Source of the DNA: a virus
Taxonomy: Duplodnaviria > Heunggongvirae > Uroviricota > Caudoviricetes
Length of the DNA stretch: 64,000 nt
Direction: 5' to 3' (one strand)
Virus record (IMG/VR): IMGVR_UViG_3300049014_000001
Span: 24,956 to 88,955 of that record
How positions within the stretch are numbered: position 1 is the first letter of the stretch; the number at the start of each line of letters is the position of its first letter. Shown in pieces: positions 9,973-62,473 of this stretch. The position numbers and the translations under genes were made by a program. The notes below the pieces were generated by a model that was not told where the DNA came from, did not search any database, and worked only from the letters and a program-made list of their open reading frames with translations.

Positions 9973-10011
9973 ACATGATAATTCCTTCATCAACCAACTG
10001 ACGGAGGAATT

Positions 10012-10716: not shown

Positions 10717-10742
10717 CTAGTACTACTAACCAAGGAGAAAAT

Positions 10743-11339
10743 ATGACCCCTGCACAACGTTGCGCAAAAGTTTCCCAGAACATGGACAACATTGCCCTCA
10801 TCACCTTCGCCATTGGCTTCTGCAAAGCCGCCCACTTCGGCCAGAAACGTAAATGGTCGTTCGAACCTTATTGGACTCACCCTATGGCGGTGGCAAACAT
10901 CCTGCATGAACACGGCCACAATGACCCTCACATGCAAATTGTCGCCCTGCTGCACGATGTAGTAGAGGACACGCCTATCACTCTGGAAGAAATCACTGAG
11001 CACTTTGGCGAAAAGGTAGCTGAAGATGTCCACTGGCTCACGAAAGTGGACTACAGCAAGCACACAGACCCCTTCGGCATGCCCCTGAAACGCGCTGCGA
11101 AGAAATTCCTTGAGAACCTTCGTCTGAGCCGCGCTCCACAGCACGTCAAAACGATTAAGCTTGCCGACCGCTTGCACAACATGACCATTCTCACGGAAGA
11201 CCCGGCTTTTGCTCCGCTCTACGCAGAAGAGACTCGTGAGCTTCTTGACTACGCCTTGAAAGAAGGCTGTCCTGTCCTGTGGGCAAAGCTGGACAAAATT
11301 ATCAAGAATTTCCAAAATCCTATTGACAAGGCTATCTAA
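10743..11339 (+). CDS. HD-domain hydrolase of the RelA/SpoT (p)ppGpp-hydrolase type (small alarmone hydrolase-like)
   Basis: H...HD motif with ALLHDVVEDT signature; start re-set to MTPAQR after RBS AAGGAGAAA. Confidence 0.65.
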   Translation: MTPAQRCAKVSQNMDNIALITFAIGFCKAAHFGQKRKWSFEPYWTHPMAVANILHEHGHNDPHMQIVALLHDVVEDTPITLEEITEHFGEKVAEDVHWLTKVDYSKHTDPFGMPLKRAAKKFLENLRLSRAPQHVKTIKLADRLHNMTILTEDPAFAPLYAEETRELLDYALKEGCPVLWAKLDKIIKNFQNPIDKAI

Positions 11340-11381
11340 GTAGCGCTACTATACTGCCTACCAACTAACCAAGGAGAAGAA

Positions 11382-11558
11382 ATGAATACCATGCAACAAG
11401 AATTCGATGCGGTAGTCGCCCATTTGTACGCTCAAGGGAAGCGTGCAGCAGTACTAGGACGCTGCAAGTATAGGTCTGATGAAGGAACTATGTGTGCGGT
11501 AGGCTGTCGCATTCCTAATAACATGTATAACCCTGCCATGGAAGGGGCGACATCCTGA
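11382..11558 (+). CDS. Hypothetical small Cys-containing protein (58 aa)
   Basis: ORF below track threshold with canonical UTR CTAACCAAGGAGAAGAAATG. Confidence 0.35.
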   Translation: MNTMQQEFDAVVAHLYAQGKRAAVLGRCKYRSDEGTMCAVGCRIPNNMYNPAMEGATS

Positions 11559-11593
11559 CAACTGAAATCAAAGCACTTAGATAAGGAGAAACT

Positions 11594-11785
11594 ATGCAAC
11601 AGATTATTACCTTCCTTCGTAAAGCCAAGAACATGATTCTGGCCCTGCTGATGGGTCTTGCTGTCGTACTGGCGGTAAGCCTTCTTGTTTTCCTGTCGGC
11701 AGCTCTGAAGGGCATGCTCATTCCGCTGATGTTCTTCTGCGGTGGTGTGTACCTCTTCTACCACTGGCTAGAGGGACGACAATAA
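11594..11785 (+). CDS. Small membrane protein
   Basis: 63 aa, two hydrophobic helices, RBS TAAGGAGAAA. Confidence 0.5.
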   Translation: MQQIITFLRKAKNMILALLMGLAVVLAVSLLVFLSAALKGMLIPLMFFCGGVYLFYHWLEGRQ

Positions 11786-11787
11786 GC

Positions 11788-12063
11788 ATGAACGGCCTAC
11801 CTTACAAAGATACCTTCGCAGCTAAAGGTAGCCAGCTCTACGAAGCTATCACGGAAGGACGTGATGAAGATGCAAAGAAAATCTACGCAGATACGACAGC
11901 TCGTTACCATGCCCTGCTGAATGGACTGTCCGTTCCAAAAGTAGTCGTGTCCGAGAAGAATCCTAAAATCTGGGCTATCCTCGCTGACGATGCAGAATAC
12001 GACAAGCAAGGAAGGCTCGTTAAGAAACTAGAGAAAGGAGGGAATGTAGATGTCAAGGTATAA
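11788..12063 (+). CDS. Hypothetical protein
   Basis: Track ORF in tight same-strand array. Confidence 0.45.
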   Translation: MNGLPYKDTFAAKGSQLYEAITEGRDEDAKKIYADTTARYHALLNGLSVPKVVVSEKNPKIWAILADDAEYDKQGRLVKKLEKGGNVDVKV

Positions 12064-12355
12064 AATTGGACAAGAACTGGAAATCCATTCCCTCAAAGGC
12101 TTCGGGAACGCACAAGAGAACGGTAGACGTGTAAGAGTTGTAAAGCTCCCCGGCTTCCATCCTACTTATCAAAGTAACTACCTCGTTCGCTACGTCGATA
12201 ACTCAAGAGAACTAGTAGCACACCCAGACTACCTACGTCCACCTCCACCACCTTCAAATCGTGGAGACATGGACAAGGTGACAAGCTGGGAAGAGTTCGA
12301 ATCTGTCACTCGCATCCCTGCCGATGTCGTACGAGGAACGGACAGTGAACACTGA
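12050..12355 (+). CDS. Hypothetical protein
   Basis: Track ORF; RBS GGAGGGAATG upstream. Confidence 0.45.
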   Translation: MSRYKIGQELEIHSLKGFGNAQENGRRVRVVKLPGFHPTYQSNYLVRYVDNSRELVAHPDYLRPPPPPSNRGDMDKVTSWEEFESVTRIPADVVRGTDSEH

Positions 12356-12372
12356 GAAGGAAGAATACACCT

Positions 12373-12567
12373 ATGAAGCACACGATTTCTCCCTCCGGGT
12401 GGGCGGGAAGAAGTCAGGAAGAGTTGTATGCGCAACGTGTGGCCTTGTACCGTCCAACACTCCATTCACTTTATGGGCAGTACGAATGGGATGCAACAAC
12501 CGCTACCATCCTTCCTACCACAACAAACGTTATGAAACAACCAAACTTTTCTAAGGAGAAACAATGA
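12373..12567 (+). CDS. Hypothetical protein
   Basis: Preferred over the overlapping 12324 ORF because of RBS AAGGAAG. Confidence 0.4.
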   Translation: MKHTISPSGWAGRSQEELYAQRVALYRPTLHSLYGQYEWDATTATILPTTTNVMKQPNFSKEKQ

Positions 12568-12902
12568 GACTACTACTTCAATGTCGTCTTATCAAAACAG
12601 AAAGACGATTGACATTCGATATTCTTTGGCAGAATGACCATCCAGACATCACATGGAACGGAGATGACGATGGAAATTATCACAAATTCACAGCTAGCAA
12701 CGGCTACGAAGTGATTTCCCGTTCCCGAATGGATATCCAAACAGAACGCATCTGGCTACTAGGTGCCAAGCGTAATGAAGAATCCCGCTCAGGAACAATG
12801 GTGTTCTCCAGCAACGAGAAACGTGATGCTGCTTACTGGAACTTCGTCATCGCACTCAAAGAATGGGCCGATCATAACAACGGATTCATAAATATTTTCT
12901 AA
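12564..12902 (+). CDS. Hypothetical protein
   Basis: RBS TAAGGAGAAACA; overlaps the previous stop. Confidence 0.5.
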   Translation: MRLLLQCRLIKTERRLTFDILWQNDHPDITWNGDDDGNYHKFTASNGYEVISRSRMDIQTERIWLLGAKRNEESRSGTMVFSSNEKRDAAYWNFVIALKEWADHNNGFINIF

Positions 12903-12912
12903 GGAGAAACAA

Positions 12913-13245
12913 ATGTCAGAACTGTCACTACCTACCATCGTACGTCATAAAGACGGAAGCATTTTTGCTATGGTAGAAGGAACACTTGAAGACTGGGTGA
13001 GCCTTGTTGTCATTCACGATACAGAACTCAAGCGGAAACCGGGAGAAGGAACTAAGAACTGCTGGCACCAATCCTCCGTCATCGACTGGATTGAAGATGG
13101 CACCTACAACGTAATCCACGGAGGCATCACAAACAAGCTAGAACCAATTCGTATCGAAATCGACTCCAGCCCCGTATCAGCAGCATTGGCAGAAGTGAAA
13201 GAACTGGAAGCTACCCTCCTTCGCGTAAAGAGTATGCTGAAATGA
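12913..13245 (+). CDS. Hypothetical protein
   Basis: RBS TAAGGAGAAACAA; followed by a terminator. Confidence 0.5.
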   Translation: MSELSLPTIVRHKDGSIFAMVEGTLEDWVSLVVIHDTELKRKPGEGTKNCWHQSSVIDWIEDGTYNVIHGGITNKLEPIRIEIDSSPVSAALAEVKELEATLLRVKSMLK

Positions 13246-13251
13246 TATCAG

Positions 13252-13280
13252 AAGGCTCCCTCCGGGGAGCCTTTTTTATT
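13252..13280 (+). terminator. Intrinsic terminator
   Basis: aaggctccc-tccg-gggagcctt hairpin then TTTTTTATTT. Confidence 0.7.
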
Positions 13281-13281
13281 T

Positions 13282-14600
13282 GGGCTAAAATTTCCTAAGT
13301 ATTTGATTCTAAAAATATTTTTTGAAGTACACCCTTCCAACATATCTACAACACTTGTTAGAAAATTATCATACCTACATCCTGACGAAATAGGCAGAAC
13401 TTTTATGGGCCGGGACAATGGGCTAACACTGGATATGAGCGAGGGCTAGCGGATGGCAATCCATGTTTGGCTATGGGTCTAGCGGATGGCTTAATGCGTG
13501 GCGGTGTGGGCACGAGGATGGCTGGGGCCTTCCAAAAATATCATGGCTGCATTTGTTTGAGGTAGGTAAGGGGTAGACATACCCTTTGGCTAAAACGGCT
13601 CAAAACGCGTTTAAATCGATTCTAGCACCATGTGTATAAATCATTGACGTTCGTCTAGGGTTTATACAAGGTAGGATGATAGTTGCACTAGCCACATAGT
13701 GAATCAGCTAGGAACATGGATAGGAACGCATAGGAAGCCCTATGAGGCGTTATCTAGGAGTGGCTAAGGGGTTGGCATAGGTAGGGCTAAATAAACGTCC
13801 TGTAGGGCCTCTACGCTTGCCTGAGTTAGAATTGCAATAAAGCAATGATTAGTGCACTAAACGTTGCATTGGCAGCATTATATGTGCCTGTGGCACGCAT
13901 ATTAATAATAAGAAACAATGTTTCGCGTTCGCTTGCTTTGCAATCGCCCGCCCTCACTGTCCATACACATAGATATAGCCCTGTATATGTGCCACCGGCA
14001 CCCCCTATATATGGCCCTAGGGGCCTCCCTATACACCCCCTCCTACAGAGGGTAGCCCTGTATGTAGTCCCATAGGGACAGCCCATTGTTTTAGATAGTT
14101 TGCTAATACATAGTGCACTATTTAATCGTACTTGAATGATTAGCGTACTAAGTGTTGTTGACAAACAACGAAATGTATGATATGCTATGCGTCGGGGCAT
14201 GAGCGCAGCGAATGCCTAATATACAAGTATTATATAAATGTATATATTATATGTTATATAACTATGTATATATGTGCCTATGGCACGACAGTATGTTAGT
14301 CCCTCTGGGACAGCTAGATATGGTGGCTAACAGCCACGCTATAGCCCCTCTCTCGCCCTTAGTCGGTCGATCAATCGAGGGGTAGCTAGCAAGGGTGTGC
14401 CATAGGCACGTATATACGTTATGTGGCTGTTAGCCACCATATAGCCTAGTCGCTTTGCTGAAAGCGTTTATAGGCCCTAGGAAGCGTTAATACGTGAGTT
14501 GGAATAGGAATATGCCAGAATAGGCGAGGATAGCCCTGTAGGGCCATAGAATGAGAAAAGTCAGCCTTGTTTAAGGGCTGGCTTTGTTGTTTGTGACTTA
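13282..14600. promoter_or_regulatory. AT-rich non-coding island with multiple palindromic protein-binding-type sites and promoter-like elements
   Basis: No credible ORF. GTGCC-N3-GGCAC at 13883-13895, 14274-14286 and 14397-14409. GTGGCTAACAGCCAC at 14323 and its inverse GTGGCTGTTAGCCAC at 14423, exactly 100 bp apart. TTGACA-17-TATGCT at 14158. The tctagggtttataca box is at 13655. Confidence 0.5.
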
Positions 14601-51117: not shown

Positions 51118-52167
51118 ATGATGCAAAAAGCAAGAATTATGACTCCTACTGACTCTTATGTCACAGTCTACCCGGAGTTTATCAAGCTGGCTGATACCCA
51201 GTTTGAGGATTGCCGCTGGACTCACAAAGAGATTGCGGTAGAGAAGGATAAGCAAGACATGATGGTGAACGTGAACGATGCTGCACGTCATGCCATCACA
51301 ACCGGCCTGAAACTGTTCACTCGTTATGAGATGTTCGCCGGTATCGAATATTGGAATGGGAGAGTGCTAAAAGCCTTCCCACGTCCTGAAGTACAACGTA
51401 TGGCTACCGTCTTCGGTGCATTTGAGCTGCAAGTACACGCTCCGTTCTACAACAAGCTGAACGAAGTGTTGGGCCTTGATACAGATGAATTCTACACTTC
51501 GTACGTGAACGATCCTGTACTGAACGAACGTGTCAAGTTCTTGGACAAAGCTGTAGATAGTAAAGATGATTTGCTGAGCATCGCTGTGTTCTCCATGATG
51601 GAAGGCGCTGTGCTGTTCTCCAACTTCGCACTGTTCAAGAGCTTCCAAAGCAACGGCAACAACAAGATCGGTAACACCGTTCGTGGTATCGACCAATCCG
51701 TAGTTGATGAAGGTCTGCATCAGATTGGTGGTGCTACGCTGTTCCGTCGAGCGATTGAAGAACTTAAAGAGATTATGTCTCCAGAAAACTTCAAGCGTAT
51801 GTGGAAGAGTCTGTGCAATAAGATTCGTCGCGCTGGCAAGAAGCTGGCTGAACACGAGTTCCGTATCACGGACATGCTGATGTCAAAGGGCGACATTGGT
51901 ACTGGCATTACTGCCGAGAGCATGAAGCAATTCGTCATGAGCCGTATCAACATCTGCTTAAACGATCTGGGCGTACCTGTGTTGTACACCAAGAAGCAAA
52001 TTGGAGCCAATCCGATTGCTGGATGGTTCTACGGTGGTGTTCAGAAGTTCCAGATGAATGACTTCTTCGTAGGCAAAGGACGCGAGTACACAACAACATG
52101 GAATGAACGAGCCTTCACATGGTTCGTAGAGGATAAGAAACCGGAGACAACTAATGAGCAAGTATGA
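51118..52167 (+). CDS. nrdB: Ribonucleotide reductase class I small subunit
   Basis: 349 aa; ferritin-like motifs SMMEGAVLFSNFALFKSF and RGIDQSVVDEGLHQ. Confidence 0.7.
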   Translation: MMQKARIMTPTDSYVTVYPEFIKLADTQFEDCRWTHKEIAVEKDKQDMMVNVNDAARHAITTGLKLFTRYEMFAGIEYWNGRVLKAFPRPEVQRMATVFGAFELQVHAPFYNKLNEVLGLDTDEFYTSYVNDPVLNERVKFLDKAVDSKDDLLSIAVFSMMEGAVLFSNFALFKSFQSNGNNKIGNTVRGIDQSVVDEGLHQIGGATLFRRAIEELKEIMSPENFKRMWKSLCNKIRRAGKKLAEHEFRITDMLMSKGDIGTGITAESMKQFVMSRINICLNDLGVPVLYTKKQIGANPIAGWFYGGVQKFQMNDFFVGKGREYTTTWNERAFTWFVEDKKPETTNEQV

Positions 52168-53905
52168 ACAACTGAGTGAAGCACGTAAGAAAGGTCAAGC
52201 AGAAGGCACTGTCCCTGAGTGGATGCCTACGGCTGGCTATCAGATGTTCATGGAACGGTATCTGTACGAAGCAGAGAATCCACGCGAACAGTTCATCCGT
52301 ATTGCTCAAACTGCTGCTAAGCATGCTCCAGACGCATATTTGCCGCATGATGACATTGCAGCCGATGTTGCAGCAGGCAATATGATGCTTTCACCGAAGT
52401 CATACTGGACTGATAAGTTCTTCGAAATCCTGTGGAAGGGCTGGATGGCTTGCTCTACTCCAGTGTTGGCGAACATGGGTACAGATCGTGGCCTTCCTGT
52501 GTCGTGTGCTGGATCGGAGATGGACAACTCTATCTTCGGCTTCTACGATAACCTGAAGGAAATGGCTCTGCTGTCTAAGCATGGCTTCGGTACGGCTACT
52601 GACCTGTCACCTGTCCAACCTCGTGGCTCTCGTATGCGTACTGGTGGCAAGGCTAACGGTGTGATGCCTGTAATTGAAGACCACATCATCATGTCTCGTA
52701 AAGTAAGTCAGGGCAGTGCTCGACGTGGTGCATGGGCCGCTTACCTTAATGTGATGCATGGAGACTTCTGGGAAGTGATTGACTACCTTGAACGCCACGA
52801 TGATGACTTCAACATCGGCTGGATCGTTCACGATGACTTCATTGCCAAGCTAAACAAAGGTAATGTAGAAGCACACAAGCGTTTCCAACGCATGATGCGT
52901 GTGAAGATGCAAACTGGTAAGGGTTACTTCTTCTTCATCGACAAGGTGAATCGTAACCGTCCACAGATGTACAAAGACTTGGGCCTGATGGTCAAGGCTT
53001 CTCAGCTCTGCACGGAAATCTTCCTGCACAGCGATGCCACCAAGTACACCTACACCTGTGTGCTAGCTTGGATGAACGCTTCGAAGTACGACGAGTACAA
53101 AGACACTGATGCTGTTCAAGTAGCCACTGTGTTCCTTGATTGCGTTGTGTCAGAGTTCCTTGAACGTGCCCGTAAGATTCCGGGACTTGAAAAGGCTGTA
53201 GCGTCTACTGAAGCTGGTAGGGCAATCGGTCTTGGTGCTGGTGGTCTTCACACCTATATGCAAGAACACATGATGCCTGTAGACTCGTTGGACGCTTACA
53301 TGTTCAACGCAGAGTTCTTCAAGCATCTGAATGCTGAATCGCTGAAGGCTTCTCAATGGCTTGCAAAAGAACTCGGTGAACCTGAGTGGTGCAAAGGCTA
53401 TGGTGTACGCTTTACACACCGTATGGCTGTAGCTCCTACCAAGTCCACTGCATTGATTTACGGTGGCATTTCGGAAGGTCGTGGACTTGACACTGCGATG
53501 AGCTTTACGCAGAAGACATCTGCCGGTGAAGTAGATCGTGTGAACCCTCCACTGCTTGCTCTGATTAAGCGCAAAGGATTGAACGTTGAGAAGTGCATCA
53601 AGGACGTGGTTGAAGGCTACGGATCGGTGCAGCACGTAGACTGGCTGAATGACGAAGAGAAGCTTGTCTTCCGTACTGGCTTTGAATACGATCAACGTGT
53701 TGTGCTTCGTCTTGCTATCGCTGCTCAGAAAGAGATTGACCAAGGCCAGAGCATCAACGTGTACATTGCCAAGGGCACTACCGAACAAGAGATTGCTGAT
53801 CTTCACAAGTTCGCATTCGAACAAGAGATGATTCACAGCTTGTACTACATCTACTCCAGCCGTGCAGTTATCTCGGCAAAGAGTGAGTGTGTAGCTTGCC
53901 AATGA
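52154..53905 (+). CDS. nrdA: Ribonucleotide reductase class I large subunit (short form)
   Basis: 583 aa; VLANMGT, active-site region ASQLCTEIFL (NxCxE), C-terminal Cys pair ECVACQ. Confidence 0.75.
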   Translation: MSKYEQLSEARKKGQAEGTVPEWMPTAGYQMFMERYLYEAENPREQFIRIAQTAAKHAPDAYLPHDDIAADVAAGNMMLSPKSYWTDKFFEILWKGWMACSTPVLANMGTDRGLPVSCAGSEMDNSIFGFYDNLKEMALLSKHGFGTATDLSPVQPRGSRMRTGGKANGVMPVIEDHIIMSRKVSQGSARRGAWAAYLNVMHGDFWEVIDYLERHDDDFNIGWIVHDDFIAKLNKGNVEAHKRFQRMMRVKMQTGKGYFFFIDKVNRNRPQMYKDLGLMVKASQLCTEIFLHSDATKYTYTCVLAWMNASKYDEYKDTDAVQVATVFLDCVVSEFLERARKIPGLEKAVASTEAGRAIGLGAGGLHTYMQEHMMPVDSLDAYMFNAEFFKHLNAESLKASQWLAKELGEPEWCKGYGVRFTHRMAVAPTKSTALIYGGISEGRGLDTAMSFTQKTSAGEVDRVNPPLLALIKRKGLNVEKCIKDVVEGYGSVQHVDWLNDEEKLVFRTGFEYDQRVVLRLAIAAQKEIDQGQSINVYIAKGTTEQEIADLHKFAFEQEMIHSLYYIYSSRAVISAKSECVACQ

Positions 53906-53906
53906 T

Positions 53907-54194
53907 ATGCAAGTGTACGTTGTGGAGTTTGAGAAGCATCCCGGCTTGTTCAAGATTGGACTGAGCAAAGATGTGAAGCAAAGGCTTCCGCAACTCAAAG
54001 TCTCCCACGGTGAACCACTGAACATGAAACGGTGGACTGTGGGAGCTAGGTACAGGATAATTGAGAGGGCTTTGCATAAAGCCTTTTCGTCCTACCGTAA
54101 GCCTGTACCCGGAGAGGGAGGCACAGAATTTTTTGATGTGGTCGTAAGACCGAACGTAGAAAGGATATTGGACGATGAAGTTGACTGTGTATAG
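53907..54194 (+). CDS. T5orf172 / GIY-YIG-like domain small protein
   Basis: MQVYVVEFEKHPGLFKIGLSKDVKQRLPQLK...TEFF; inserted between nrdA and nrdH. Confidence 0.5.
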   Translation: MQVYVVEFEKHPGLFKIGLSKDVKQRLPQLKVSHGEPLNMKRWTVGARYRIIERALHKAFSSYRKPVPGEGGTEFFDVVVRPNVERILDDEVDCV

Positions 54195-54399
54195 TATGGA
54201 AGGTTGTGCTGCTTGTGTATCGGCTGCTAACCTGTTGAAGGCCAAGGGCATTGATTTCGAAGTAGTGAAGATTGACGAGAACCCGGAAGCATGGGAGTTC
54301 TTGAAGAAGGAAGGCCATCGGGCTATGCCTCAGATTTACGAAGGTGACAAGCTGTTTGTAGTTGGTGGCTTCCAAGGGCTGCTGAAGCACTTCAAATAA
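54175..54399 (+). CDS. nrdH: Glutaredoxin-like NrdH redoxin
   Basis: 74 aa, CAAC redox motif, follows the RNR genes. Confidence 0.7.
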   Translation: MKLTVYSMEGCAACVSAANLLKAKGIDFEVVKIDENPEAWEFLKKEGHRAMPQIYEGDKLFVVGGFQGLLKHFK

Positions 54400-54889: not shown

Positions 54890-54946
54890 TCAAGGGCTGG
54901 AGGGAGGCAAAGCCTTTCTCTGGCCTTTTCTTTTGGAGGACACTGA

Positions 54947-55105
54947 ATGAAGTTCTTTTGCATGCTAGGAGTGCATGATTGGGAATATGGGCCTGTGTAT
55001 ATGGGAACTCCCAACGGCTACGCAGCTAAGTACTATGTACAAAACAAAGTTTGCCAGTGCTGCAACAAAACAGAAGTCGTATTTTCCGCAGGAGGCTCAA
55101 TGTGA
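54947..55105 (+). CDS. Cys-rich small protein (52 aa)
   Basis: ORF below threshold; RBS GGAGGACACTGAATG. Confidence 0.3.
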   Translation: MKFFCMLGVHDWEYGPVYMGTPNGYAAKYYVQNKVCQCCNKTEVVFSAGGSM

Positions 55106-55395
55106 ATATCGGATTTGACTACGATGATACGTTCACTCGTGATCCTGCTGGATGGTCGCAGATTATCAATTTCCTTACCAAGCGAGGGCACAAAGTGTAC
55201 ATCGTTACATGGCGCACCACAGCAGAGTGCATGCGTGTCCACGCAGAGATGCAGTATTGGAAAGTAGATATCGAAGGTATCTTTGCAACGCATAGGACAG
55301 CTAAAGAGCCTTACATGAACCAGCGTGGTATCATCATTGACGTTTGGGTTGATGACAATCCTCGTGCGGTAATTAAAGACATGGAGAAGTTGTAA
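55102..55395 (+). CDS. HAD-superfamily phosphatase (5'(3')-deoxyribonucleotidase-like), GTG start
   Basis: Motif I GFDYDDTF (DxDxT) and motif IV DVWVDDNP; RBS GGAGG before GTG. Confidence 0.6.
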   Translation: MNIGFDYDDTFTRDPAGWSQIINFLTKRGHKVYIVTWRTTAECMRVHAEMQYWKVDIEGIFATHRTAKEPYMNQRGIIIDVWVDDNPRAVIKDMEKL

Positions 55396-55811
55396 TGAAC
55401 AAGATTGATTCGTTTAGCGGAGGCTATCGCTTCCTGTCTAACTTCTGGTACAACCCAGATGGCTATACCAATGAGCATCGCTTCCAAGCAGCTAAGGCTA
55501 AACATAAGGAACACTACGACTGGATTATGGAATCCAAGTCTCCCGGTGAGGCCAAACGTCGTGGTCGGCAAGTGCCAATGCGTGAAGACTGGAATGACAT
55601 TCGCATCGGCGTTATGCTGGAACTTACTACTGAAAAGTTTAAAGACCCAGCGCTACGTGCTCAGTTGCTTGCTACTGGGGATGCTGAACTCATCGAAGGC
55701 AATACATGGGGTGATCGGTTCTGGGGCGTCTGCGACGGTGAAGGTCAGAACTGGCTTGGCCAATGCCTGATGAACGTCCGTGAGGGCATTCGAAATGTGC
55801 AAGGTAGTTAA
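55395..55811 (+). CDS. NADAR-domain protein (YbiA-like N-glycosidase acting on ADP-ribose derivatives)
   Basis: FLSNFWYNP...EHRFQAAKAK...W(x)I...GDRFWG signature of DUF1768/NADAR. Confidence 0.65.
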   Translation: MNKIDSFSGGYRFLSNFWYNPDGYTNEHRFQAAKAKHKEHYDWIMESKSPGEAKRRGRQVPMREDWNDIRIGVMLELTTEKFKDPALRAQLLATGDAELIEGNTWGDRFWGVCDGEGQNWLGQCLMNVREGIRNVQGS

Positions 55812-56079
55812 CAAACGCTACCAAGCATATGATGTCTACATAGGAAGGGGAAGCCCTCTTGGTAATCCTTTTCCTATTGACGAGAACACAGGACAAACAC
55901 GAAGCGTCGTTATCGAGAAGTACAGACGATGGTTGTGGGAAGAGATGAAGGCTGGTAGAATAACTAAGGAGTACTTGCTATCGTTGGACGGGAAGGCTCT
56001 TGGATGTTTTTGCGCACCTTCACCTTGTCACGGTGATGTTATTGTACAAGCGGTAAATTGGATTAAGGAAAACAAATAA
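55795..56079 (+). CDS. DUF4326-domain protein (frequent NADAR partner)
   Basis: YDVYIGRGSPLGNPF...KYRRWL...GKALGCFCAPSPCHGDV. Confidence 0.55.
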   Translation: MCKVVNKRYQAYDVYIGRGSPLGNPFPIDENTGQTRSVVIEKYRRWLWEEMKAGRITKEYLLSLDGKALGCFCAPSPCHGDVIVQAVNWIKENK

Positions 56080-56294
56080 TGGATATTTATGCACAAAAAG
56101 GAAGTAAGGTACGCTACCTAGGAACTGGGGGATATCAGGGTGAACGTGATCGCATTGAAGCTCTTGGGGTGAAGAAGGGAGACATCCTAACCGTTCGTTA
56201 CACTAATGTTGACAACTGGCATACGGATGCCTACTTCTTTGAAATCGAAAGAGGCCACAACTCAGTCATGTTTGAGGATGTTGAAAATGACTAA
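56079..56294 (+). CDS. Hypothetical protein
   Basis: 71-aa track ORF. Confidence 0.4.
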   Translation: MDIYAQKGSKVRYLGTGGYQGERDRIEALGVKKGDILTVRYTNVDNWHTDAYFFEIERGHNSVMFEDVEND

Positions 56295-56351
56295 AGAGCA
56301 GCATGAACAGGCTCGTAGAGAGCTTGGATGGCCCATTAAAGGGAGAACACG

Positions 56352-56828
56352 GTGAAGCTAGTAATCGCAGGTAGTCGTTCCATCAAGGACTATCATATAA
56401 CTCGCCAAGCTTTCCTTGAAAGTGGTCTATGGGATAAGTACAAAAAGAAGCTTGAAATTATTTCTGGGGAAGCAGAAGGCCCAGATAAGCATGGTGAAAT
56501 CATCGCTGAAAAAGCTGGACTGAAGCTCCACAGGAAGCCCGCTGACTGGGGCAACGTCAAAGCGAAGGGTGCTGTAATTCGTCATAACAGCCGTGGAGCT
56601 TACAACGCTCTTGCTGGACACTGGCGTAACGAAGAGATGGCTCACATGGCAGACTGTGCTCTAATCGTCTGGGATGGCAAATCTACTGGCAGCTTGGATA
56701 TGCTTCATCGGATGATCGCTCTGGAGAAGCGTGCTATCCTGTACCCTCTTCGTATCAGCGCTGATGCTCTGGACTCGCTGCAAGATAAGTGCGAAATTAT
56801 TTTTCCAAACCAGTTGACAAGCACGTAA
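56352..56828 (+). CDS. SLOG-superfamily (DUF2493 / DprA-LOG-like Rossmann) protein
   Basis: MKLVIAGSRS...IISGEAEGPDKHGEIIAEKAGL matches the GxAxGxD nucleotide-binding SLOG pattern. Confidence 0.5.
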   Translation: MKLVIAGSRSIKDYHITRQAFLESGLWDKYKKKLEIISGEAEGPDKHGEIIAEKAGLKLHRKPADWGNVKAKGAVIRHNSRGAYNALAGHWRNEEMAHMADCALIVWDGKSTGSLDMLHRMIALEKRAILYPLRISADALDSLQDKCEIIFPNQLTST

Positions 56829-56843
56829 GTAGTGCTGCATAAT
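56814..56843 (+). promoter_or_regulatory. Promoter TTGACA-18-CATAAT
   Basis: cagttgacaagcacgtaagtagtgctgcataat plus UTR CAACCAAGGAGAATAGAAATG. Confidence 0.45.
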
Positions 56844-56876
56844 GCTTGTCATTGAACACAACCAAGGAGAATAGAA

Positions 56877-57254
56877 ATGAACTACAAAGAACTCGTCGTA
56901 GAACTGAAGGAAGCTAAGTCCCTGATCGACTCCCCTGAGAAATGGACTCAACATAAATTCGGTAGGGATGCTTGGGGGCATGGCCTGAGTACTAATGAGT
57001 GGAGCGATACTCCGCCAGCATGCATGTGCTCCGTTGGTGCTATCTACGAAGTAAATCGTCGTAAAGACCCTACTGTGTGCTTGTACAAAGTAAGCTCCAC
57101 CAGAAGCGACAATGCTGCCAGCTTCCTTACTCGTGTCGCTGGGGAAGTTATTACCCGCTTCAATGATAGCCACTCTCACGCTGAAGTAATGGCTCTCTGG
57201 GACAAAGCAATTGCTAAGGCGGAAAAACTGGCAGCAGAAGGAGAAGAAAAATGA
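56877..57254 (+). CDS. Unknown-function protein, paralogue A of a tandem pair
   Basis: Shares SPxKW(x)Q, C(M/F)CS(V/L)GA and FNDSxxH(x)EV...DKAIA(x)AE blocks with the next gene. Confidence 0.55.
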   Translation: MNYKELVVELKEAKSLIDSPEKWTQHKFGRDAWGHGLSTNEWSDTPPACMCSVGAIYEVNRRKDPTVCLYKVSSTRSDNAASFLTRVAGEVITRFNDSHSHAEVMALWDKAIAKAEKLAAEGEEK

Positions 57255-57571
57255 AGGTAAGCCAACAACTGAAAGCAGCAAAAGCCATCATTGCCTCTCC
57301 TAGCAAGTGGCTTCAAGGGGCGTATGCTAAGGATGCAGATGGCTTTTACATGCGTGGCAACAATACCAATGCAGTTTGCTTCTGCTCGTTGGGAGCTTTG
57401 CAAGCTGTGAATCAAACCGACAGTGATGCTCCATCTCAGCCAGCTATCGCCGTTTTGAAGCAGTTCATGGGAGGGGATGTTCCAGAATTCAATGATAGCG
57501 CCACTCACGAGCAAGTGTTGGAGGCATTTGATAAAGCTATCGCTGCTGCGGAGGAACAGGAGGCAGCGTGA
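57251..57571 (+). CDS. Unknown-function protein, paralogue B of a tandem pair
   Basis: Same conserved blocks as 56877-57254. Confidence 0.55.
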   Translation: MKVSQQLKAAKAIIASPSKWLQGAYAKDADGFYMRGNNTNAVCFCSLGALQAVNQTDSDAPSQPAIAVLKQFMGGDVPEFNDSATHEQVLEAFDKAIAAAEEQEAA

Positions 57572-57739
57572 CAATTCATCAAGATTGGCAAGAGTACGCT
57601 ACGTACTTAGACAGCTTCAAGAAGGAACGTAGCGAACGCTGCCAATGTGACGTAGAATTCGGGACATGTCCCGGCCCAACCAACTGTCCATATTCGGACG
57701 TAGAAGGAGAAGATATTGAAAGTAACCCAGAGTCGCAAT
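57568..57739 (+). CDS. Cys-rich small protein (GTG start, 57 aa)
   Basis: Strong RBS AGGAGGCAGC before GTG; CQCD...CPGPTNCP. Confidence 0.3.
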
Positions 57740-57919
57740 AAACGTGAAGGTAAGTACATCTCCCGTTGGTGCTATAACCCCGGCATCAAAGGCTTCAACA
57801 AGAAGACTAATCAATACACCTACAATATTCGCGCTGGTGCTCACTTTGATCTAGTAAAGGTGAAGCACGCCCAGCTTGGTATTGTTCTGTTACGTAAAGT
57901 ACGAAAGGAATTCGAATGA
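57716..57919 (+). CDS. Small basic protein (TTG start)
   Basis: Track ORF; RBS GAAGGAGAAG. Confidence 0.4.
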   Translation: MKVTQSRNKREGKYISRWCYNPGIKGFNKKTNQYTYNIRAGAHFDLVKVKHAQLGIVLLRKVRKEFE

Positions 57920-58734
57920 GCATCCGTATCGTAGGCTATCCAGAAGCCTTTACCAAAACAACTTTCCCCGGTGGAGAGTCGTGCATCCGTGTCACCATGA
58001 ACACTCCAATGGAGCCTGACCTGACGCTGGAACTGGCATTCGAAAACAACGGTGATCTATTCGACTTGGCCTTGCTGGCTGACGCACTTCGACGTAAGTT
58101 CCCAGAGAAGAAGCTGAAACTCTGGATGGGTTACACTCCTTATGCACGTCAGGATCGCGTATGTAACGAAGGTGAAAGCCTGTCCATTAAAGTTGTGGCA
58201 GATTTCATCAACTCGCTGAAGTTCGAAGCTGTGTGTATCATCGACCCTCACTCGGATGTCACTCCTGCGCTGTTTGAACGTGCTATGGTGATCGAACAGA
58301 AGTGGCTGTGTACTCGTCCACAGTTGCGTACGAATCCTAGTAACACTATCATCGTAGCTCCTGATGCCGGTGCAGCAAAGAAAGCTCGTGCATTCGCTCA
58401 ACTCGGTGGCTTCGCTGGGCTGGTACAAGCTGAGAAAGTTCGTGAGCTTTCTACTGGTAACATTCTGGAAACTCGTGTACAATCTGAACACATTGGTGAT
58501 AAGGACTTCCTCATTGTGGATGACATCTGCGATGGTGGCCGTACCTTCACCGAATTGGCAAAGGTGCTTCGTCCTCTTACCAATGGCAAGATTAAGCTGT
58601 TCGTAACACACGGTATCTTCTCGGCGGGTGAAAAAGTATTTGACAACCTGATTGATGAAGTGTACACTGCTAATCCTGTCGGGGCTACTGGACGAGCAGC
58701 CGTAGAAAGTGGTATCAAAGTAGTCCGTATCTAA
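57916..58734 (+). CDS. Ribose-phosphate pyrophosphokinase-family enzyme (Prs-like; candidate ADPR-pyrophosphate synthetase Adps)
   Basis: GYTPYARQDR, IIDPHSD, IVAPDAGAAKKARAFA, PRTase motif FLIVDDICDGGRT, VTHGIFSAGE. Confidence 0.75.
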   Translation: MSIRIVGYPEAFTKTTFPGGESCIRVTMNTPMEPDLTLELAFENNGDLFDLALLADALRRKFPEKKLKLWMGYTPYARQDRVCNEGESLSIKVVADFINSLKFEAVCIIDPHSDVTPALFERAMVIEQKWLCTRPQLRTNPSNTIIVAPDAGAAKKARAFAQLGGFAGLVQAEKVRELSTGNILETRVQSEHIGDKDFLIVDDICDGGRTFTELAKVLRPLTNGKIKLFVTHGIFSAGEKVFDNLIDEVYTANPVGATGRAAVESGIKVVRI

Positions 58735-58770
58735 CGCTACGTATGTAGCAAACTAACCAAGGAGAATTAA

Positions 58771-59157
58771 ATGAAAAAGCTTTTCGCTCTGTTGCTGGTG
58801 GCTGTATCTCTCGTTGCTTGCGGCCCTGATCGTCCACCTGTCCCGGTGATTAACCAAGAAGGCCAACCTGTGGCTCAACAAGCTCAAGGCGGTGGTGATG
58901 GCTTTGACACTGGTGACGCCGCTGTAGGCGCTCTGGCCGGTGCTGCTGCTGGTTACATGATGGGCAAGTCGTCCAACAGCCAGCCACAACGCACCGTGAT
59001 CGTGGACAATCGTAGTCCATACTACGGCCCAAGCTACCGCAACTACGGTAGCCCGTATGGTCGTAAATCTGTGACCACTACTACGACTACTACCAAGCGC
59101 AGTGCATTCGGTGGCCGTACCACTACCACCACTCGCAGCGTAACTCGTCGTCGTTAA
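58771..59157 (+). CDS. Glycine-zipper lipoprotein (Pcp/SlyB-like)
   Basis: Lipobox LVAC, GALAGAAAGYMMG glycine zipper, Thr-rich tail. Confidence 0.55.
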   Translation: MKKLFALLLVAVSLVACGPDRPPVPVINQEGQPVAQQAQGGGDGFDTGDAAVGALAGAAAGYMMGKSSNSQPQRTVIVDNRSPYYGPSYRNYGSPYGRKSVTTTTTTTKRSAFGGRTTTTTRSVTRRR

Positions 59158-59170
59158 TTAAGGAGAGCAA

Positions 59171-60829
59171 ATGAAAATCAAACCACACCTGATTCTGGAT
59201 TCGTACAAGCTGGGCCACATCGACCAATACCCTGAAGGTACTCAGTACGTGTACTCCAACCTGACCGCTCGTTCTGCTGCTCACGCTAAGATGGGCAACA
59301 TGTTCGACAACAAGGTGGTGTTCTTCGGTCTGCAAGGTTTCATTCAAGAATTCCTGATCGAAGCATGGAACGAACACTTCTTCGCTCGTCCTAAAGACGA
59401 AGTGATTGTGGAGTACAAGCGCCGTTGTGATAACTTCCTCGGCCCTGATGCTGTTCGTACTGACCACATCGCAGCACTGCATGATCTTGGCTACCTGCCT
59501 ATCTTCATCAAAGCTCTGCCTGAAGGCTCCCGTGTGAACATCAAGGTTCCGTTCCTGACGATTCGTAACACGCTGCCTCAGTTCTACTGGCTGACGAACT
59601 ATCTGGAAACCGTGCTGTCGGATGAACTGTGGCAAATGTGTACCGTAGCTACCATTACCTACGAGTACCGTCGAATCCTGAACAAATATGTCGAACTGAC
59701 TGGCTCGTCCAAAGAGTTCGCTGACTGGCAGATTCATGACTTCTCGATGCGTGGTATGGCTGGCTGGCATGCTTCGGCTAAGGCCGGTGCTGCTCACTTG
59801 CTGTCGTCCCGTGGCACTGATACTCTGCCAGCAGTGGATTATTTGGAACAGTACTACGGTGCTGATGTTACGAAGGAACTGGTTGCTGGCTCCGTACCAG
59901 CTACGGAACACTCCGTAATGTGCATGGGTGGCATGGGTGAAGCAGAATTGGAAACCTTCCGTCGTCTGATTACCAAGACCTACCCACAAGGTATCGTGTC
60001 TATCGTGTCGGATACGTGGGACTTCTGGACTGTCATCACCAAGTACACGGTGGCACTGAAGGAAGAAATCTTGAACCGTAAGGAGAACGCTCTAGGCATG
60101 GCTAAAGTTGTGTTCCGTCCTGACTCCGGTGATCCTGTGAAGATCGTTGCTGGTCTGCGTGTGAAGGATATTTCTGATGCACGTTTCAATACAGATGCCG
60201 ATGGCAAAGTGTTCGTCAACGTTGACGATGTACTTAAACTTGTTGAGAGCTACGATGCGGTACGTATCTTCGGTAAAGTGTTTGAATTCGATGCAGCTCG
60301 TGGCTGGGGAATCTTCCTCGGTCGAGAAGTAGCTGACCACGAAGTGAAAGGTGCTGTGGAATGCCTGTGGGATGTGTTCGGTGGTGACATCACTGAGAAG
60401 GGCTACAAGACGCTGAACCAGCGTGTGGGCCTGATCTACGGGGATAGCATCACTCTGGAACGTGCAGAACAAATCCTGCAACGCCTGAGGGATAAAGGCT
60501 TCTCGGCCGGTAACATCGTGTTCGGTGTAGGCTCGTTCACCTACCAGTACATGACGCGTGACACCTTCGGCATGGCTGTAAAGGCTACGTGGGGTCAAGT
60601 GAACGATGAAGCTCGTGACATTCAGAAAGACCCTGCTACTGGCGATGGTATGAAGAAGTCTGCTACCGGCCTGTTGCGTGTTGAAAAAGTGGATGGCAAC
60701 TACTACCTGTTCGACCGTCAGAATATCGTAGAAGAGATGTACGGTGAACTTAAAGAAGTATTCCTTGACGGTAAGGCATACAACACTCAGAGCTTTGCTC
60801 AGATCGTAGAACGTCTGAAGAAAGACTAA
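59171..60829 (+). CDS. Nicotinamide phosphoribosyltransferase-family enzyme (Nampt/NadV or Namat)
   Basis: 552 aa; N-terminus ILDSYKLGHIDQYPEGTQYVYSNLTARS matches the Nampt start (DSYK...QYP); type II PRTase length. Confidence 0.7.
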   Translation: MKIKPHLILDSYKLGHIDQYPEGTQYVYSNLTARSAAHAKMGNMFDNKVVFFGLQGFIQEFLIEAWNEHFFARPKDEVIVEYKRRCDNFLGPDAVRTDHIAALHDLGYLPIFIKALPEGSRVNIKVPFLTIRNTLPQFYWLTNYLETVLSDELWQMCTVATITYEYRRILNKYVELTGSSKEFADWQIHDFSMRGMAGWHASAKAGAAHLLSSRGTDTLPAVDYLEQYYGADVTKELVAGSVPATEHSVMCMGGMGEAELETFRRLITKTYPQGIVSIVSDTWDFWTVITKYTVALKEEILNRKENALGMAKVVFRPDSGDPVKIVAGLRVKDISDARFNTDADGKVFVNVDDVLKLVESYDAVRIFGKVFEFDAARGWGIFLGREVADHEVKGAVECLWDVFGGDITEKGYKTLNQRVGLIYGDSITLERAEQILQRLRDKGFSAGNIVFGVGSFTYQYMTRDTFGMAVKATWGQVNDEARDIQKDPATGDGMKKSATGLLRVEKVDGNYYLFDRQNIVEEMYGELKEVFLDGKAYNTQSFAQIVERLKKD

Positions 60830-60837
60830 GAGGAAGT

Positions 60838-61113
60838 ATGACTCTCGACCGCTTCGGAGAAGAGCTGTACATCGGTGATATTGTGGTGTACGCAGACACA
60901 AATGTAAGCGGTGATGGTGTGATTTCGTTGGATGTCTACAACGTGATTGAGCTGATTGATGTAAATACATGCATAGGTCAGCTCATGAACGGAAGGTATG
61001 CAGGTAACACTTTCTACCTAACAGAGACAACCAACCGTTGCGCTTACATGTATGAATCCAATCCTGAGCCTGAAGAAGGTGATGAGGATTTGGTAAAACC
61101 AATTTTTAACTAA
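60838..61113 (+). CDS. Hypothetical protein
   Basis: 91-aa track ORF. Confidence 0.45.
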   Translation: MTLDRFGEELYIGDIVVYADTNVSGDGVISLDVYNVIELIDVNTCIGQLMNGRYAGNTFYLTETTNRCAYMYESNPEPEEGDEDLVKPIFN

Positions 61114-61126
61114 GGAGAAATAACAA

Positions 61127-62473
61127 ATGGCAAAACAATCGAAAAACTACATCGGCTTCGTGAACGATCACTCCGGTTCCATGTCCTCGCTGGCTGTTGC
61201 TGCTGCCCGTGACTACAACACGAACATCGCTGCAATCAAGGATGCTGCAACTCGTGAAATGCTGGATACTGTTGTCAGCGTCGTAGGTATCGGTCTGGGT
61301 GCAGGCGTTGAACGTCAAGTAGTCGTATCCAATCCTCACGTTCTGAAGCCTATCGCTAGCTGGCCTACTCCGGGTGGCACCCCACTGTACGATGGTATTG
61401 GCGACATGATCGACCTGCTGCAATCGCTGCCAGATTCGAATGAGTCTCACGTTTCGTTCCTGATTATGATTACCACTGACGGTCAGGAAGAACACTCCCG
61501 GAAATATGATAAGGTAGCCCTGCGTAACAAAATCGAAGCCCTTAACAAGGATGGTCGTTGGACTCTGGTGTTCCGTGTTCCTCGTGGTAAAGGCTACACT
61601 GTGACGGGTCTTGGCGTTCCATCTGGTAACATCCAAGAATGGGATACCACGACTAAAGGCATGGAGCAATCCACTGTACTGAATACGCAGGCTGTTGATA
61701 CCTACTTCGCTACTCGTTCGGCTGGTGGCAAGTCGTCTAACGTGTTCTACACCAACACTGCTTCTGTGAACACTTCGGCTCTGGTGGACATCAGCGCAAA
61801 GACTTCGCTGTACGTGGTTGACCAATTCCATAATGGTGCTCAGATTCGTGACTTCATCCTGTCGAAACGCACTGAATACCTGATTGGTGCAGCGTTCTAC
61901 CAGCTCACCAAAACTGAGCCTAAAGTGGCCCCTTCGAAGCTGATTCTGATCCGCGAGAAGACTACTGGCAAAGTGTACGCTGGCCCTGACGCCCGTAAGA
62001 TGCTGGGTCTGGATACCGTTAACAACGCTCGTATCCACCCTAACCACGGCAACGGCGAGTACGACATCTTCATCCAGTCGGAGTCGGTGAATCGTAAGCT
62101 GGTGGCTGGTACTGGCGTTCTGTACTGGGCCGAGAAAGGTCGTCCTGTAACTCAAGCCGATCTGGAACGCTACGCTGGGCAGAACAAAGCTGCTGCTCCT
62201 GCTGTGCCTGTGCTGGCTCAAGCTCCTGCTACTGGCAAACCTACGCCTAGCCCGGTAGCTGCTAAGAAGATCGCTGCCAAGCCTGTCAACTCGACTAAGC
62301 CAGTAGCAATCATTCCTAGCGACGGTGGCCGTGTGCGTTACCACATTGCTCCGGCAAACGCTGCGTTCTACGCCACTCGTGACATGGCCCGTGCTCAAGC
62401 ACTGGTGCAAGGCAAGAAGTCGTATGATGCAGGCCCAACCGCTGGTAAAGGCTTCCGCTTCTACGTAGCATAA
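61127..62473 (+). CDS. von Willebrand factor A (vWA) domain protein with Pro/Ala-rich linker
   Basis: MIDAS-type DHSGSM ... TPLYDG ... ITTDGQE; C-terminal AAPAVPVLAQAPATGKPTPSP low-complexity region. Confidence 0.6.
   Translation: MAKQSKNYIGFVNDHSGSMSSLAVAAARDYNTNIAAIKDAATREMLDTVVSVVGIGLGAGVERQVVVSNPHVLKPIASWPTPGGTPLYDGIGDMIDLLQSLPDSNESHVSFLIMITTDGQEEHSRKYDKVALRNKIEALNKDGRWTLVFRVPRGKGYTVTGLGVPSGNIQEWDTTTKGMEQSTVLNTQAVDTYFATRSAGGKSSNVFYTNTASVNTSALVDISAKTSLYVVDQFHNGAQIRDFILSKRTEYLIGAAFYQLTKTEPKVAPSKLILIREKTTGKVYAGPDARKMLGLDTVNNARIHPNHGNGEYDIFIQSESVNRKLVAGTGVLYWAEKGRPVTQADLERYAGQNKAAAPAVPVLAQAPATGKPTPSPVAAKKIAAKPVNSTKPVAIIPSDGGRVRYHIAPANAAFYATRDMARAQALVQGKKSYDAGPTAGKGFRFYVA

Follow-up and report, generated by a model that had tools for sequence, protein, structure and literature searches.

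Phage systems that rebuild NAD+ or process its ADP-ribose (ADPr) derivatives are the closest described counterparts of the locus reported here: positions 55,102–57,571, and their surroundings, in a 64,000-nucleotide stretch (the window) of an uncultured ~89-kb tailed phage (IMG/VR record IMGVR_UViG_3300049014_000001). NARP1, defined by a gene pair carrying PF14572 and PF18127/PF04095 (Osterman et al. 2024), encodes the enzymes Adps, which pyrophosphorylates ADP-ribose, and Namat, which couples the resulting ADPR-PP to nicotinamide; the operon of Bacillus phage FADO has been deleted and tested (Osterman et al. 2024), and the specificity residues of both enzymes have been described (PMC12774641, PMC13586617). 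Adpp, a Macro phosphatase, acts on the ADPR-1''-phosphate made by aRES and has been shown experimentally to feed NARP1, whose operons are accompanied by a Macro gene in 15% of cases (bioRxiv 10.64898/2026.01.28.702374). RyDEP, a RyR-domain glycosidase, has likewise been shown by experiment to convert 2'/3' cyclic ADP-ribose (2'/3'cADPR) to ADP-ribose for NARP1 (preprint; PMC13232231). A wider viral NAD+/ADP-ribose network was delineated computationally by Iyer, Burroughs, Anantharaman and Aravind, who reported fusions and neighbourhoods of SLOG, NADAR, Macro and DUF4326 domains, with NADAR beside NadV, and predicted that the set degrades or processes ADPr-derived signals and toxins (Iyer et al. 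2021, PMC7824862; Iyer et al. 2022, PMC9503650). In the same two papers viral SLOG domains are assigned mainly to a YpsA-like clade, predicted to cleave or sense cyclic ADPr-like molecules. DUF4326 was tied in the earlier work (PMC7824862) to ADPr domains as well as to components of replication and restriction–modification; the later paper (PMC9503650) placed it in the rhodanese-phosphatase superfamily, with fusions to SLOG, Macro and NADAR, and favoured soluble ADPr substrates.

A preliminary description of the interval, made from the sequence alone, had read a HAD phosphatase, a SLOG protein and two tandem paralogues as parts of one extended, undescribed route for ADP-ribose or nucleotide signals. 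We arrive at a different account: our best explanation, held as a whole with moderate confidence, is that the interval brings together, as a mosaic, three pieces of independent evolutionary history and is not one pathway. It consists of accessory genes of the phage nucleotide-metabolism arm, co-oriented and tightly packed, among which only NADAR, DUF4326 and SLOG belong to the already predicted ADP-ribose toolkit beside the NAD-rebuilding operon. The HAD gene belongs with the ribonucleotide reductase (RNR), glutaredoxin (grx) and replication genes and not with NAD metabolism, and the tandem paralogues (DUF6197) together with a 57-residue Cys-rich gene are mobile, array-forming small acidic proteins without a NAD connection. 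Nor is the toolkit part of the route new, the association of SLOG, NADAR, Macro and DUF4326 and its proposed role having both been published (PMC7824862, PMC9503650).

The evidence is comparative. Domain identities were taken from Pfam, PHROG and NCBIfam scans, and loci (given L numbers below) were extracted with 10-kb flanks around 80 SLOG, 22 DUF6197 and 43 HAD genes; open reading frames (ORFs) were called in these loci and screened with hidden Markov models (HMMs) that took the window proteins as seeds and were built up by iteration. Lineages were delimited ad hoc from the genes that loci share, in place of 50% identity single-linkage clustering of the SLOG loci, which merged unrelated phages. 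The DUF6197 loci in IMG/VR were found by an alignment-based search (a single-sequence search with paralogue b gave none). The window's own lineage is represented by 11 distinct IMG/VR contigs related to it (about 80-92 kb long), all found through SLOG, such that the presence of SLOG in 11/11 is a matter of ascertainment; 20 lineages reached only through DUF6197 or HAD provide the control for SLOG neighbourhoods.

Comparison of the 11 relatives reveals a common order—RNR, grx, a variable stretch, SLOG, a second variable stretch, Prs, NAMPT, a 448-residue gene, Macro—in which the constant elements are SLOG (as ascertained), Prs (11/11), the 448-residue gene, and NAMPT and Macro (both in each relative with enough flank). 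The remaining genes come and go: HAD is found in 8/11, the 57-residue gene in 9/11 (just upstream of Adps), DUF6197 in four of the 11 and there as a single copy, NADAR in one (L003) and DUF4326 likewise in 1/11. Gene content between grx and Adps changes gene by gene among close relatives, and the interval was therefore assembled piecewise and not inherited as a unit. In one relative (L081) DUF6197 sits ~10 kb upstream of nrdB, outside the island altogether, and in a further four (L113-L116) the plus-strand block stops at nrdB-nrdA-grx-HAD, with everything from SLOG to Macro missing; HAD thus stays with nrdAB-grx in relatives that have no NAD island. The reciprocal comparison, at 15 other NARP1 loci (all with Prs directly ahead of or near NAMPT), recovered SLOG, NADAR and Macro once each, and neither HAD nor DUF6197 at any. 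The preliminary description had stated that its reading would fall were these genes unlinked to NAD genes in related phages; HAD and DUF6197 are so unlinked, and for both of them the reading therefore falls on its own terms.

The NAD-rebuilding operon itself conforms to the published definition of NARP1: a Prs-like gene (PF14572) and a Nampt-like gene (PF18127 and PF04095) lie on the same strand, with a 128-residue lipoprotein-like gene between them. The NAMPT-like protein is 46.8% identical to its homologue in phage FADO, no deposited phage protein exceeds 55% identity to it, and by sequence the pair is the probable Adps and Namat of NARP1. The intervening protein has a signal peptide, an LVAC lipobox and a Thr/Arg-rich tail (isoelectric point, pI, 10.4) and also occurs in L006. 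The 448-residue gene (61127-62473), a VWA-like gene whose product has no match in Pfam, follows the NAMPT-like gene in every relative, and a 220-residue VWA protein (L017:8054-8716) is 27% identical to it; it is a recurrent NARP1 neighbour in two distant lineages. The locus thus resembles NARP1-AP (Adps, Adpp, Namat; Osterman et al. 2026 preprint) in coupling the NARP1 pair to an associated Macro gene that is kept in relatives, yet in NARP1-AP the Macro gene lies between Adps and Namat, and the NADAR, DUF4326 and SLOG genes of the window have no counterpart there. RyDEP follows the same logic of a small accessory protein beside NARP1 that turns an immune product into a NARP1 substrate; however, its RyR domain (PF02026, Repeat12-type) has no match at E ≤ 0.1 in the ten window proteins from 55102 to 60829, and NADAR and SLOG, whose folds are unrelated to it, would be the only candidates for a glycosidase here.

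NADAR (PF08719, E 2.4e-24; 86.9 bits against a gathering score of 35.1) is a clear family member, matching YbiA (2b3w, E 1e-14) and the NADAR-domain protein 8bau (E 7.6e-7) in the PDB. DUF4326 is equally clear (PF14216, E 2.4e-24; 86.2 bits, gathering score 25), and a profile search of the PDB returned no solved sequence relative for it. Its ORF opens at GTG 55780, where there is no ribosome-binding site; ATG 55795 (MCKVVNK...), which is preceded by GAGGG and corresponds to the start of the L011 homologue, is the likelier start and gives a 17-nucleotide (nt) overlap with the end of NADAR. DUF4326 directly adjoins SLOG in three lineages beyond the window's own (L011, L027 and L046/L048/L050). 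No homologue of the 71-residue gene that follows it (56079-56294) was found in any locus compared. The Macro gene lies ~2.2 kb downstream of Namat, past the 91- and 448-residue genes, a position kept in relatives with enough flank; its product matches the macrodomains 2fg1, 2afc and 5e3b at 1e-9 to 6e-8 (best, 8e-10) and, weakly, the ADPR-1''-phosphate phosphatase 6lft (E 0.025). These sequence matches make it a candidate for an ADPR-1''-phosphate phosphatase or an ADPr hydrolase, and a candidate counterpart of Adpp, the Poa1p-like phosphatase of NARP1-AP. A Macro homologue in Felixounavirus wV8, considered as support for that assignment, was set aside, as it is not next to NARP1. Taken with SLOG, the gene set and its published predicted role are those of the viral ADP-ribose network, found here too beside NAD salvage in a tailed phage, with differences of composition: the network includes Nudix, of which none was seen in the window island, its domains are fused where those of the window are separate genes, and its salvage enzymes are NadV/NadM in place of NARP1. 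The DUF4326, 71-residue, 57-residue and downstream Macro genes had been overlooked in the preliminary description, the four genes that it named being real; its statement that all four lie between NADAR and the Prs-like gene holds for SLOG and the paralogues only, HAD being upstream of NADAR.

The SLOG (DUF2493) call made at first reading is supported. The protein matches PF10686 (YAcAr) at E 1.1e-5 (25.6 bits, under the gathering score of 28.2) and PF02481 at E 0.015, and many close homologues have precomputed matches to PF10686 and/or PF02481. Its AlphaFold model (predicted local distance difference test, pLDDT, 93.9) is a three-layer Rossmannoid fold comprising the Rossmann core only (158 residues), for which Foldseek retrieves ShosA (E 1e-6), DprA (1.6e-5 to 3e-4), LOG (5wq3, 7.6e-3), the molybdenum-cofactor carrier protein (MCP) 6y01 and TM1055, all listed at probability 1.00; superposition on DprA/ShosA gives a TM-score of about 0.6 on the query at 13-18% sequence identity. 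The family profile found no sequence in the PDB at E ≤ 1. Conserved motifs are AGSRS, SGxAxGxD, RN and WDGxSxG, and the LOG motif PGGxGTxxE with its catalytic Glu is absent: the window has W107-D-G-K-S-T-G-S-L-D-M117, with an invariant Met at what appears, on our alignment of the motif, to be the Glu position.

Neighbourhoods connect this protein to ADP-ribose. NAD/ADPr genes occur within 10 kb of SLOG in 9/35 lineages and in 0/20 controls (Fisher p = 0.011; p = 0.017 once the window's own lineage is removed), the contributions being Macro in six lineages, DUF4326 in three, and Prs with NAMPT, and NADAR, in two each. The proposal that co-localisation marks an ADP-ribose route accordingly has support for SLOG with NADAR, DUF4326 and Macro near NARP1, though not for HAD or the DUF6197 pair. 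A second, uncultured lineage (L017:3170-12301; also L018, L020-L028 and L035, contigs of 107-171 kb) encodes a SLOG 32% identical to that of the window in the order isochorismatase (PncA-like), 120-residue gene, Prs, NAMPT, Macro-like, NadE, 95-residue gene, VWA, DHH/DHHA1, 109-residue gene, SLOG, 95-residue gene, ThyA, dihydrofolate reductase (DHFR). SLOG therefore stands at the junction of a NAD island and dNTP genes in two distant lineages, in rearranged order.

Several observations weigh against the mosaic account and, within it, against placing SLOG in an ADP-ribose toolkit. Among the two genes on each side of SLOG in 34 other lineages, those for replication and dNTP metabolism predominate (ThyX, ThyA, RNR, DNA polymerases, DnaB, uracil-DNA glycosylase (UDG), ligase, dCMP deaminase, single-stranded DNA-binding protein (SSB)), with one DUF4326 and one Macro only; Prs and NAMPT are near SLOG in only 1/34 lineages outside the window's own, and SLOG is present at only one of the 15 other NARP1 loci. 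The nearest solved structures to its model are the single-stranded DNA (ssDNA) binders ShosA and DprA and not LOG enzymes. The NADAR, DUF4326 and Macro HMMs were themselves seeded from the window, and the lineage counts are approximate, relatedness between lineages being only partly controlled. Finally, HAD and SLOG lie within 10 kb of one another in three lineages (the window's own, the phiEco32-like phages and L139), making a HAD–SLOG link possible.

The foremost alternative, which we take seriously while judging it unlikely, is that SLOG is a DprA-like ssDNA binder or recombination mediator serving replication and repair, its NAD adjacency being incidental to a shared nucleotide-metabolism arm. 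ShosA and DprA bind ssDNA and rank ahead of LOG in the structural matches; the SLOG family is basic (median pI 9.0), the catalytic Glu of LOG appears to be replaced in it, as described, and polymerases, DnaB, RNR, ThyX/ThyA, UDG, ligase and SSB dominate its surroundings. In Seuratvirus DruSM1, moreover, knock-out of ORF83 (annotated DprA/Smf) lowers plating on Avs type III, a system described with a nuclease effector, as does knock-out of the DNA ligase ORF55. ORF83 is probably equivalent to Seurat gp80 (on genus, annotation and gene position), which is 34% identical to the window protein (E 5e-16), shares its R-N and G-[ST]-x-D-M motifs and belongs to the same SLOG subfamily; in Seuratviruses the gene is surrounded by small hypothetical genes and, unlike in the window, NAD genes are absent from its vicinity, and the ORF83 phenotype is one of small plaques and reduced plating. 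Against this alternative, the window protein shares with DprA and ShosA, its best structural matches, the Rossmann core of the SLOG superfamily alone, and is without the flanking SAM or Z-DNA-binding-like domains of DprA. The EVADES authors found ORF83 to lack the residues used by DprA for dimerisation and RecA binding, predicted that it binds AMP via R89, N90, T112 and D114, and noted amoeba-virus homologues fused to DUF4326; the window counterparts of these residues are R92, N93, S114 and D116, of which R92, N93 and S/T114 are conserved in its family. This SLOG type has also been reported fused to Macro, NADAR and DUF4326, and the enrichment of NAD/ADPr neighbours favours the toolkit assignment.

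The HAD gene, by comparison, keeps other company. Its identification in the preliminary description from a DxDxT motif was sound: the ORF is real, and motif I (D6-Y-D8-D9-T10) together with T36, K68 and D84-D85, which the alignment lets us read as motifs II, III and IV, is invariant in nine homologues. The protein matches phrog_4256 and phrog_4919 (E about 1e-23), finds no Pfam family at E ≤ 0.1, and has weak matches to HAD-IIB in NCBIfam (E 0.018) and, as a profile against the PDB, to the HAD phosphatase 7xhz (E 0.008) and AphA (E 0.04). Its neighbours in nine other lineages are ThyX, family A and B DNA polymerases, dCTP deaminase, dUTPase, a MazG-like protein, ligase, UvsX/RecA, SbcC/Mre11-like proteins (Mre11-like phosphoesterases among them) and one Tad3; a NAD gene accompanies HAD only in loci that also carry SLOG or Macro, such as those of phiEco32-like phages, where Macro lies ~3 kb beyond HAD and SLOG ~1.1 kb further. 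In some of these phages, phiEco32 itself (L144, IMGVR_UViG_642483447_000001, 10001-14500) among them, the HAD homologue, Macro and SLOG fall within ~4.5 kb, without NARP1. The phiEco32-like arrangement hints at an association of HAD, Macro and SLOG that is independent of NAD rebuilding. The window protein is most likely a nucleotide monophosphatase or a polynucleotide 3'-phosphatase.

The tandem paralogues are, as first described, related to one another (34% identity, BLASTP E 4e-18), and the two blocks they share, CxCSxGA and FNDSxxHxEV...DKAIAxAE, are columns conserved across a family. That family can be named: both are bona fide members of Pfam DUF6197 (PF19698; 40.9 and 56.8 bits against a gathering score of 24.6), a family without known function, so that the earlier verdict of no assignable function was correct as to function only. 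W20, C43, C45, G48, N81, D82 and H86 are invariant or nearly so. The AlphaFold model (pLDDT 97.9) combines a bundle of helices with a small beta-hairpin, and a profile search of the PDB gave nothing usable and no solved relative. The family comprises 28,925 clusters at 50% identity (E ≤ 1e-3; median pI 5.25), commonly in tandem arrays of two to six copies per locus (L083, L084, L089/L090, L094, L099), and two-domain fusions occur in relatives of the window phage (P0080-P0086). The fused proteins (P0080-P0086, P0245, P0280) contain two, three or 7-9 repeats, one of them reaching 990 residues; a search for fusions in long DUF6197 proteins found self-repeats and no other domain. Annotated neighbours are ArdA, Lar, Cro/CI-type helix–turn–helix proteins and ProQ/FinO, and NAD/ADPr genes are absent within 10 kb of DUF6197 in all 14 other lineages. 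This work thereby adds to the family a fold model, a size, an array and self-fusion habit, and an early-region and anti-restriction neighbourhood. We consider DUF6197 most likely to be an early protein that targets the host or its defences, with the CxC/ND/H cluster binding a metal or ligand. Because its gene is kept upstream of Adps in 9/11 relatives, the neighbouring 57-residue Cys-rich protein may work with NARP1 as a small protein that binds zinc.

To the observed gene identities, folds, paralogy and neighbourhood statistics we add predicted enzyme roles. NADAR, DUF4326, the 71-residue gene and SLOG, together with the downstream Macro, would form the phage copy of the predicted viral ADP-ribose-processing toolkit, flanking a NARP1 (Adps and Namat) that would rebuild NAD+ from ADP-ribose and nicotinamide. 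This toolkit would most likely serve to trim non-canonical ADP-ribose derivatives—candidate substrates being ADPR-1''-phosphate, base- or ribose-linked ADPr and cyclic ADPr signals—to plain ADP-ribose, which would at once remove immune products and feed NARP1. By analogy with Adpp and RyDEP, Macro and DUF4326 would act as removers of phosphates or esters and NADAR as an N-glycosidase, with SLOG a Rossmann protein that may bind or cleave a nucleotide or ADPr. The two roles suggested in the preliminary description, degradation of defence messengers and supply of substrates to the NAD-rebuilding enzymes, are established principles, because Adpp and RyDEP have been shown experimentally to feed NARP1; in this phage other domains would carry them out.

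A more ambitious version of the trimming proposal, which we put forward as a doubtful speculation, is a broadened NARP1 in which four unrelated accessory enzymes, Macro, the rhodanese-phosphatase-like DUF4326, the N-glycosidase NADAR and a catalytic YAcAr-type SLOG, would funnel several defence-made breakdown products of NAD+ into ADP-ribose (ADPR-1''-phosphate made by RES enzymes, the 2'/3'cADPR of Thoeris TIRs and the ADPr that DarT links to bases). SLOG and DUF4326 would in that case be two new classes of enzyme that degrade immune signals. Separately, DUF6197 could be a huge, unrecognised phage anti-defence family of array-forming sponges or inhibitors.

It is improbable, in our estimation, that NADAR, Macro and DUF4326 instead act with a DNA-binding SLOG to reverse DarT-type ADP-ribosylation of phage DNA, the freed ADP-ribose being recycled by NARP1. 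NADAR enzymes reportedly take ADPr off guanine and DarG-type Macro domains off thymine, which would suit such a role, as would the resemblance of the window NADAR to 8bau and YbiA and the proximity of the SLOG fold to ssDNA binders. DUF4326, besides its ties to ADPr domains, is linked to replication and restriction–modification components (Iyer et al. 2021, PMC7824862). Yet the occurrence of NADAR and DUF4326 in 1/11 relatives each marks them as dispensable add-ons, and soluble substrates are favoured by Iyer et al. 2022 (PMC9503650). The original proposal, that the whole interval including HAD and both DUF6197 genes is one dedicated multi-step pathway for ADP-ribose or nucleotide signals, is very improbable and largely refuted by the neighbourhood data: the genes are co-oriented, overlapping or near-abutting at their ends and downstream of one strong terminator-like hairpin, HAD can lie near SLOG, and Adpp sets a precedent for a phosphatase step in feeding NARP1, but tight packing is generic in phage genomes, HAD is kept without the NAD island and has replication and dNTP genes as its usual neighbours, DUF6197 is apart from NAD genes in all 14 other lineages, neither gene was found at the 15 other NARP1 loci, and the grx–Adps gene content varies among close relatives.

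The mosaic is set in a region, 50 to 64 kb of the window, that is a single closely packed plus-strand run with GGAG-type ribosome-binding sites ahead of most genes (Table 1). The T5orf172/GIY-YIG-like gene between nrdA and grx is probably a homing-endonuclease-type element, remnant or minimal, and the 52-residue ORF (54947-55105) has its sole homologue, among the relatives compared, in L004. A scan for promoters and terminators gave overall motif counts at chance expectation, from which the hairpin at 54892-54928 and two promoter-like sites with 11/12 matches are worth recording. When the region and the second-lineage island were compared by megablast with 50,697 phage records, neither gave a match, and the window phage has no close cultured relative. 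Comparison of DNA polymerases (47-51% identity) puts Aeromonas phages and Pseudomonas phages of the Nankokuvirus/Pakpunavirus type nearest among cultured phages; the ~15 kb from the RNR genes to the record end in Nankokuvirus G1 contain no HAD, SLOG, DUF6197, NARP1 or Macro.

Table 1. Features of the interval and its surroundings, in window positions
Feature	Position	Strand	Remarks
nrdB	51118-52167	+	
nrdA	52154-53905	+	
T5orf172/GIY-YIG-like gene, 95 residues	53907-54194	+	PF10544 E 1.9e-11
Glutaredoxin (grx)	54175-54399	+	
141-residue gene	ends 54889	+	hairpin comes next
Terminator-like hairpin, strong	54892-54928		17 pairs; just ahead of the 52-residue gene
Cys-containing ORF, 52 residues	54947-55105	+	first gene past the hairpin; 4-nt overlap with HAD start
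HAD-type phosphatase, minimal, capless, 97 residues	55102-55395	+	GTG start; motifs DYDDT, VTWR, K68, VDD
NADAR domain protein, 138 residues	55395-55811	+	PF08719
DUF4326 protein, ~94 residues	about 55795-56079	+	PF14216
Acidic protein, 71 residues	56079-56294	+	phrog_8472 E 2.5e-9
SLOG-superfamily Rossmann protein, 158 residues	56352-56828	+	YAcAr/DUF2493 and DprA-like type; pI 9.1
Promoter-like site	56814-56843		11/12 matches; inside SLOG 3' end, just ahead of DUF6197a
DUF6197 paralogue a, 125 residues	56877-57254	+	PF19698 E 2.8e-10
DUF6197 paralogue b, 106 residues	57251-57571	+	acidic (pI 4.6); ATGA overlap with paralogue a
Cys-rich acidic protein, 57 residues	57568-57741	+	CQCDV..GTCPGPxxCPYS; 4-nt overlap with DUF6197b
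Prs-like protein, probable Adps of NARP1	57916-58734	+	PF14572, PF13793, PF00156; phrog_619 6e-82
Lipoprotein-like gene, 128 residues	58771-59157	+	between Adps-like and Namat-like genes
NAMPT-like protein, probable Namat of NARP1	59171-60829	+	PF04095, PF18127
91-residue gene	60838-61113	+	
VWA-like gene, 448 residues	61127-62473	+	N-terminal DxSxS motif
Macro-domain protein, 158 residues	63085-63561	+	PF01661 E 1.2e-4

Bacterial immunity depends centrally on NAD+ depletion and on signals derived from ADP-ribose, and the phage counters to them (NARP1, NARP1-AP, RyDEP) are emerging enzyme by enzyme. The present locus, with stand-alone NADAR, DUF4326, SLOG and Macro genes around one NARP1 operon and close relatives that carry differing subsets of them, is a compact natural test bed for the toolkit. 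It also averts a false lead, in that neither the HAD gene nor the DUF6197 pair should be assumed to serve NAD metabolism; DUF6197, with ~29,000 clusters, a confident fold and tandem arrays, is a probable early or anti-defence protein that merits independent study. SLOG (YAcAr) and DUF4326 have been predicted ADPr processors since 2021-22 and, if that prediction is true, would be new enzyme classes for phage immune evasion.

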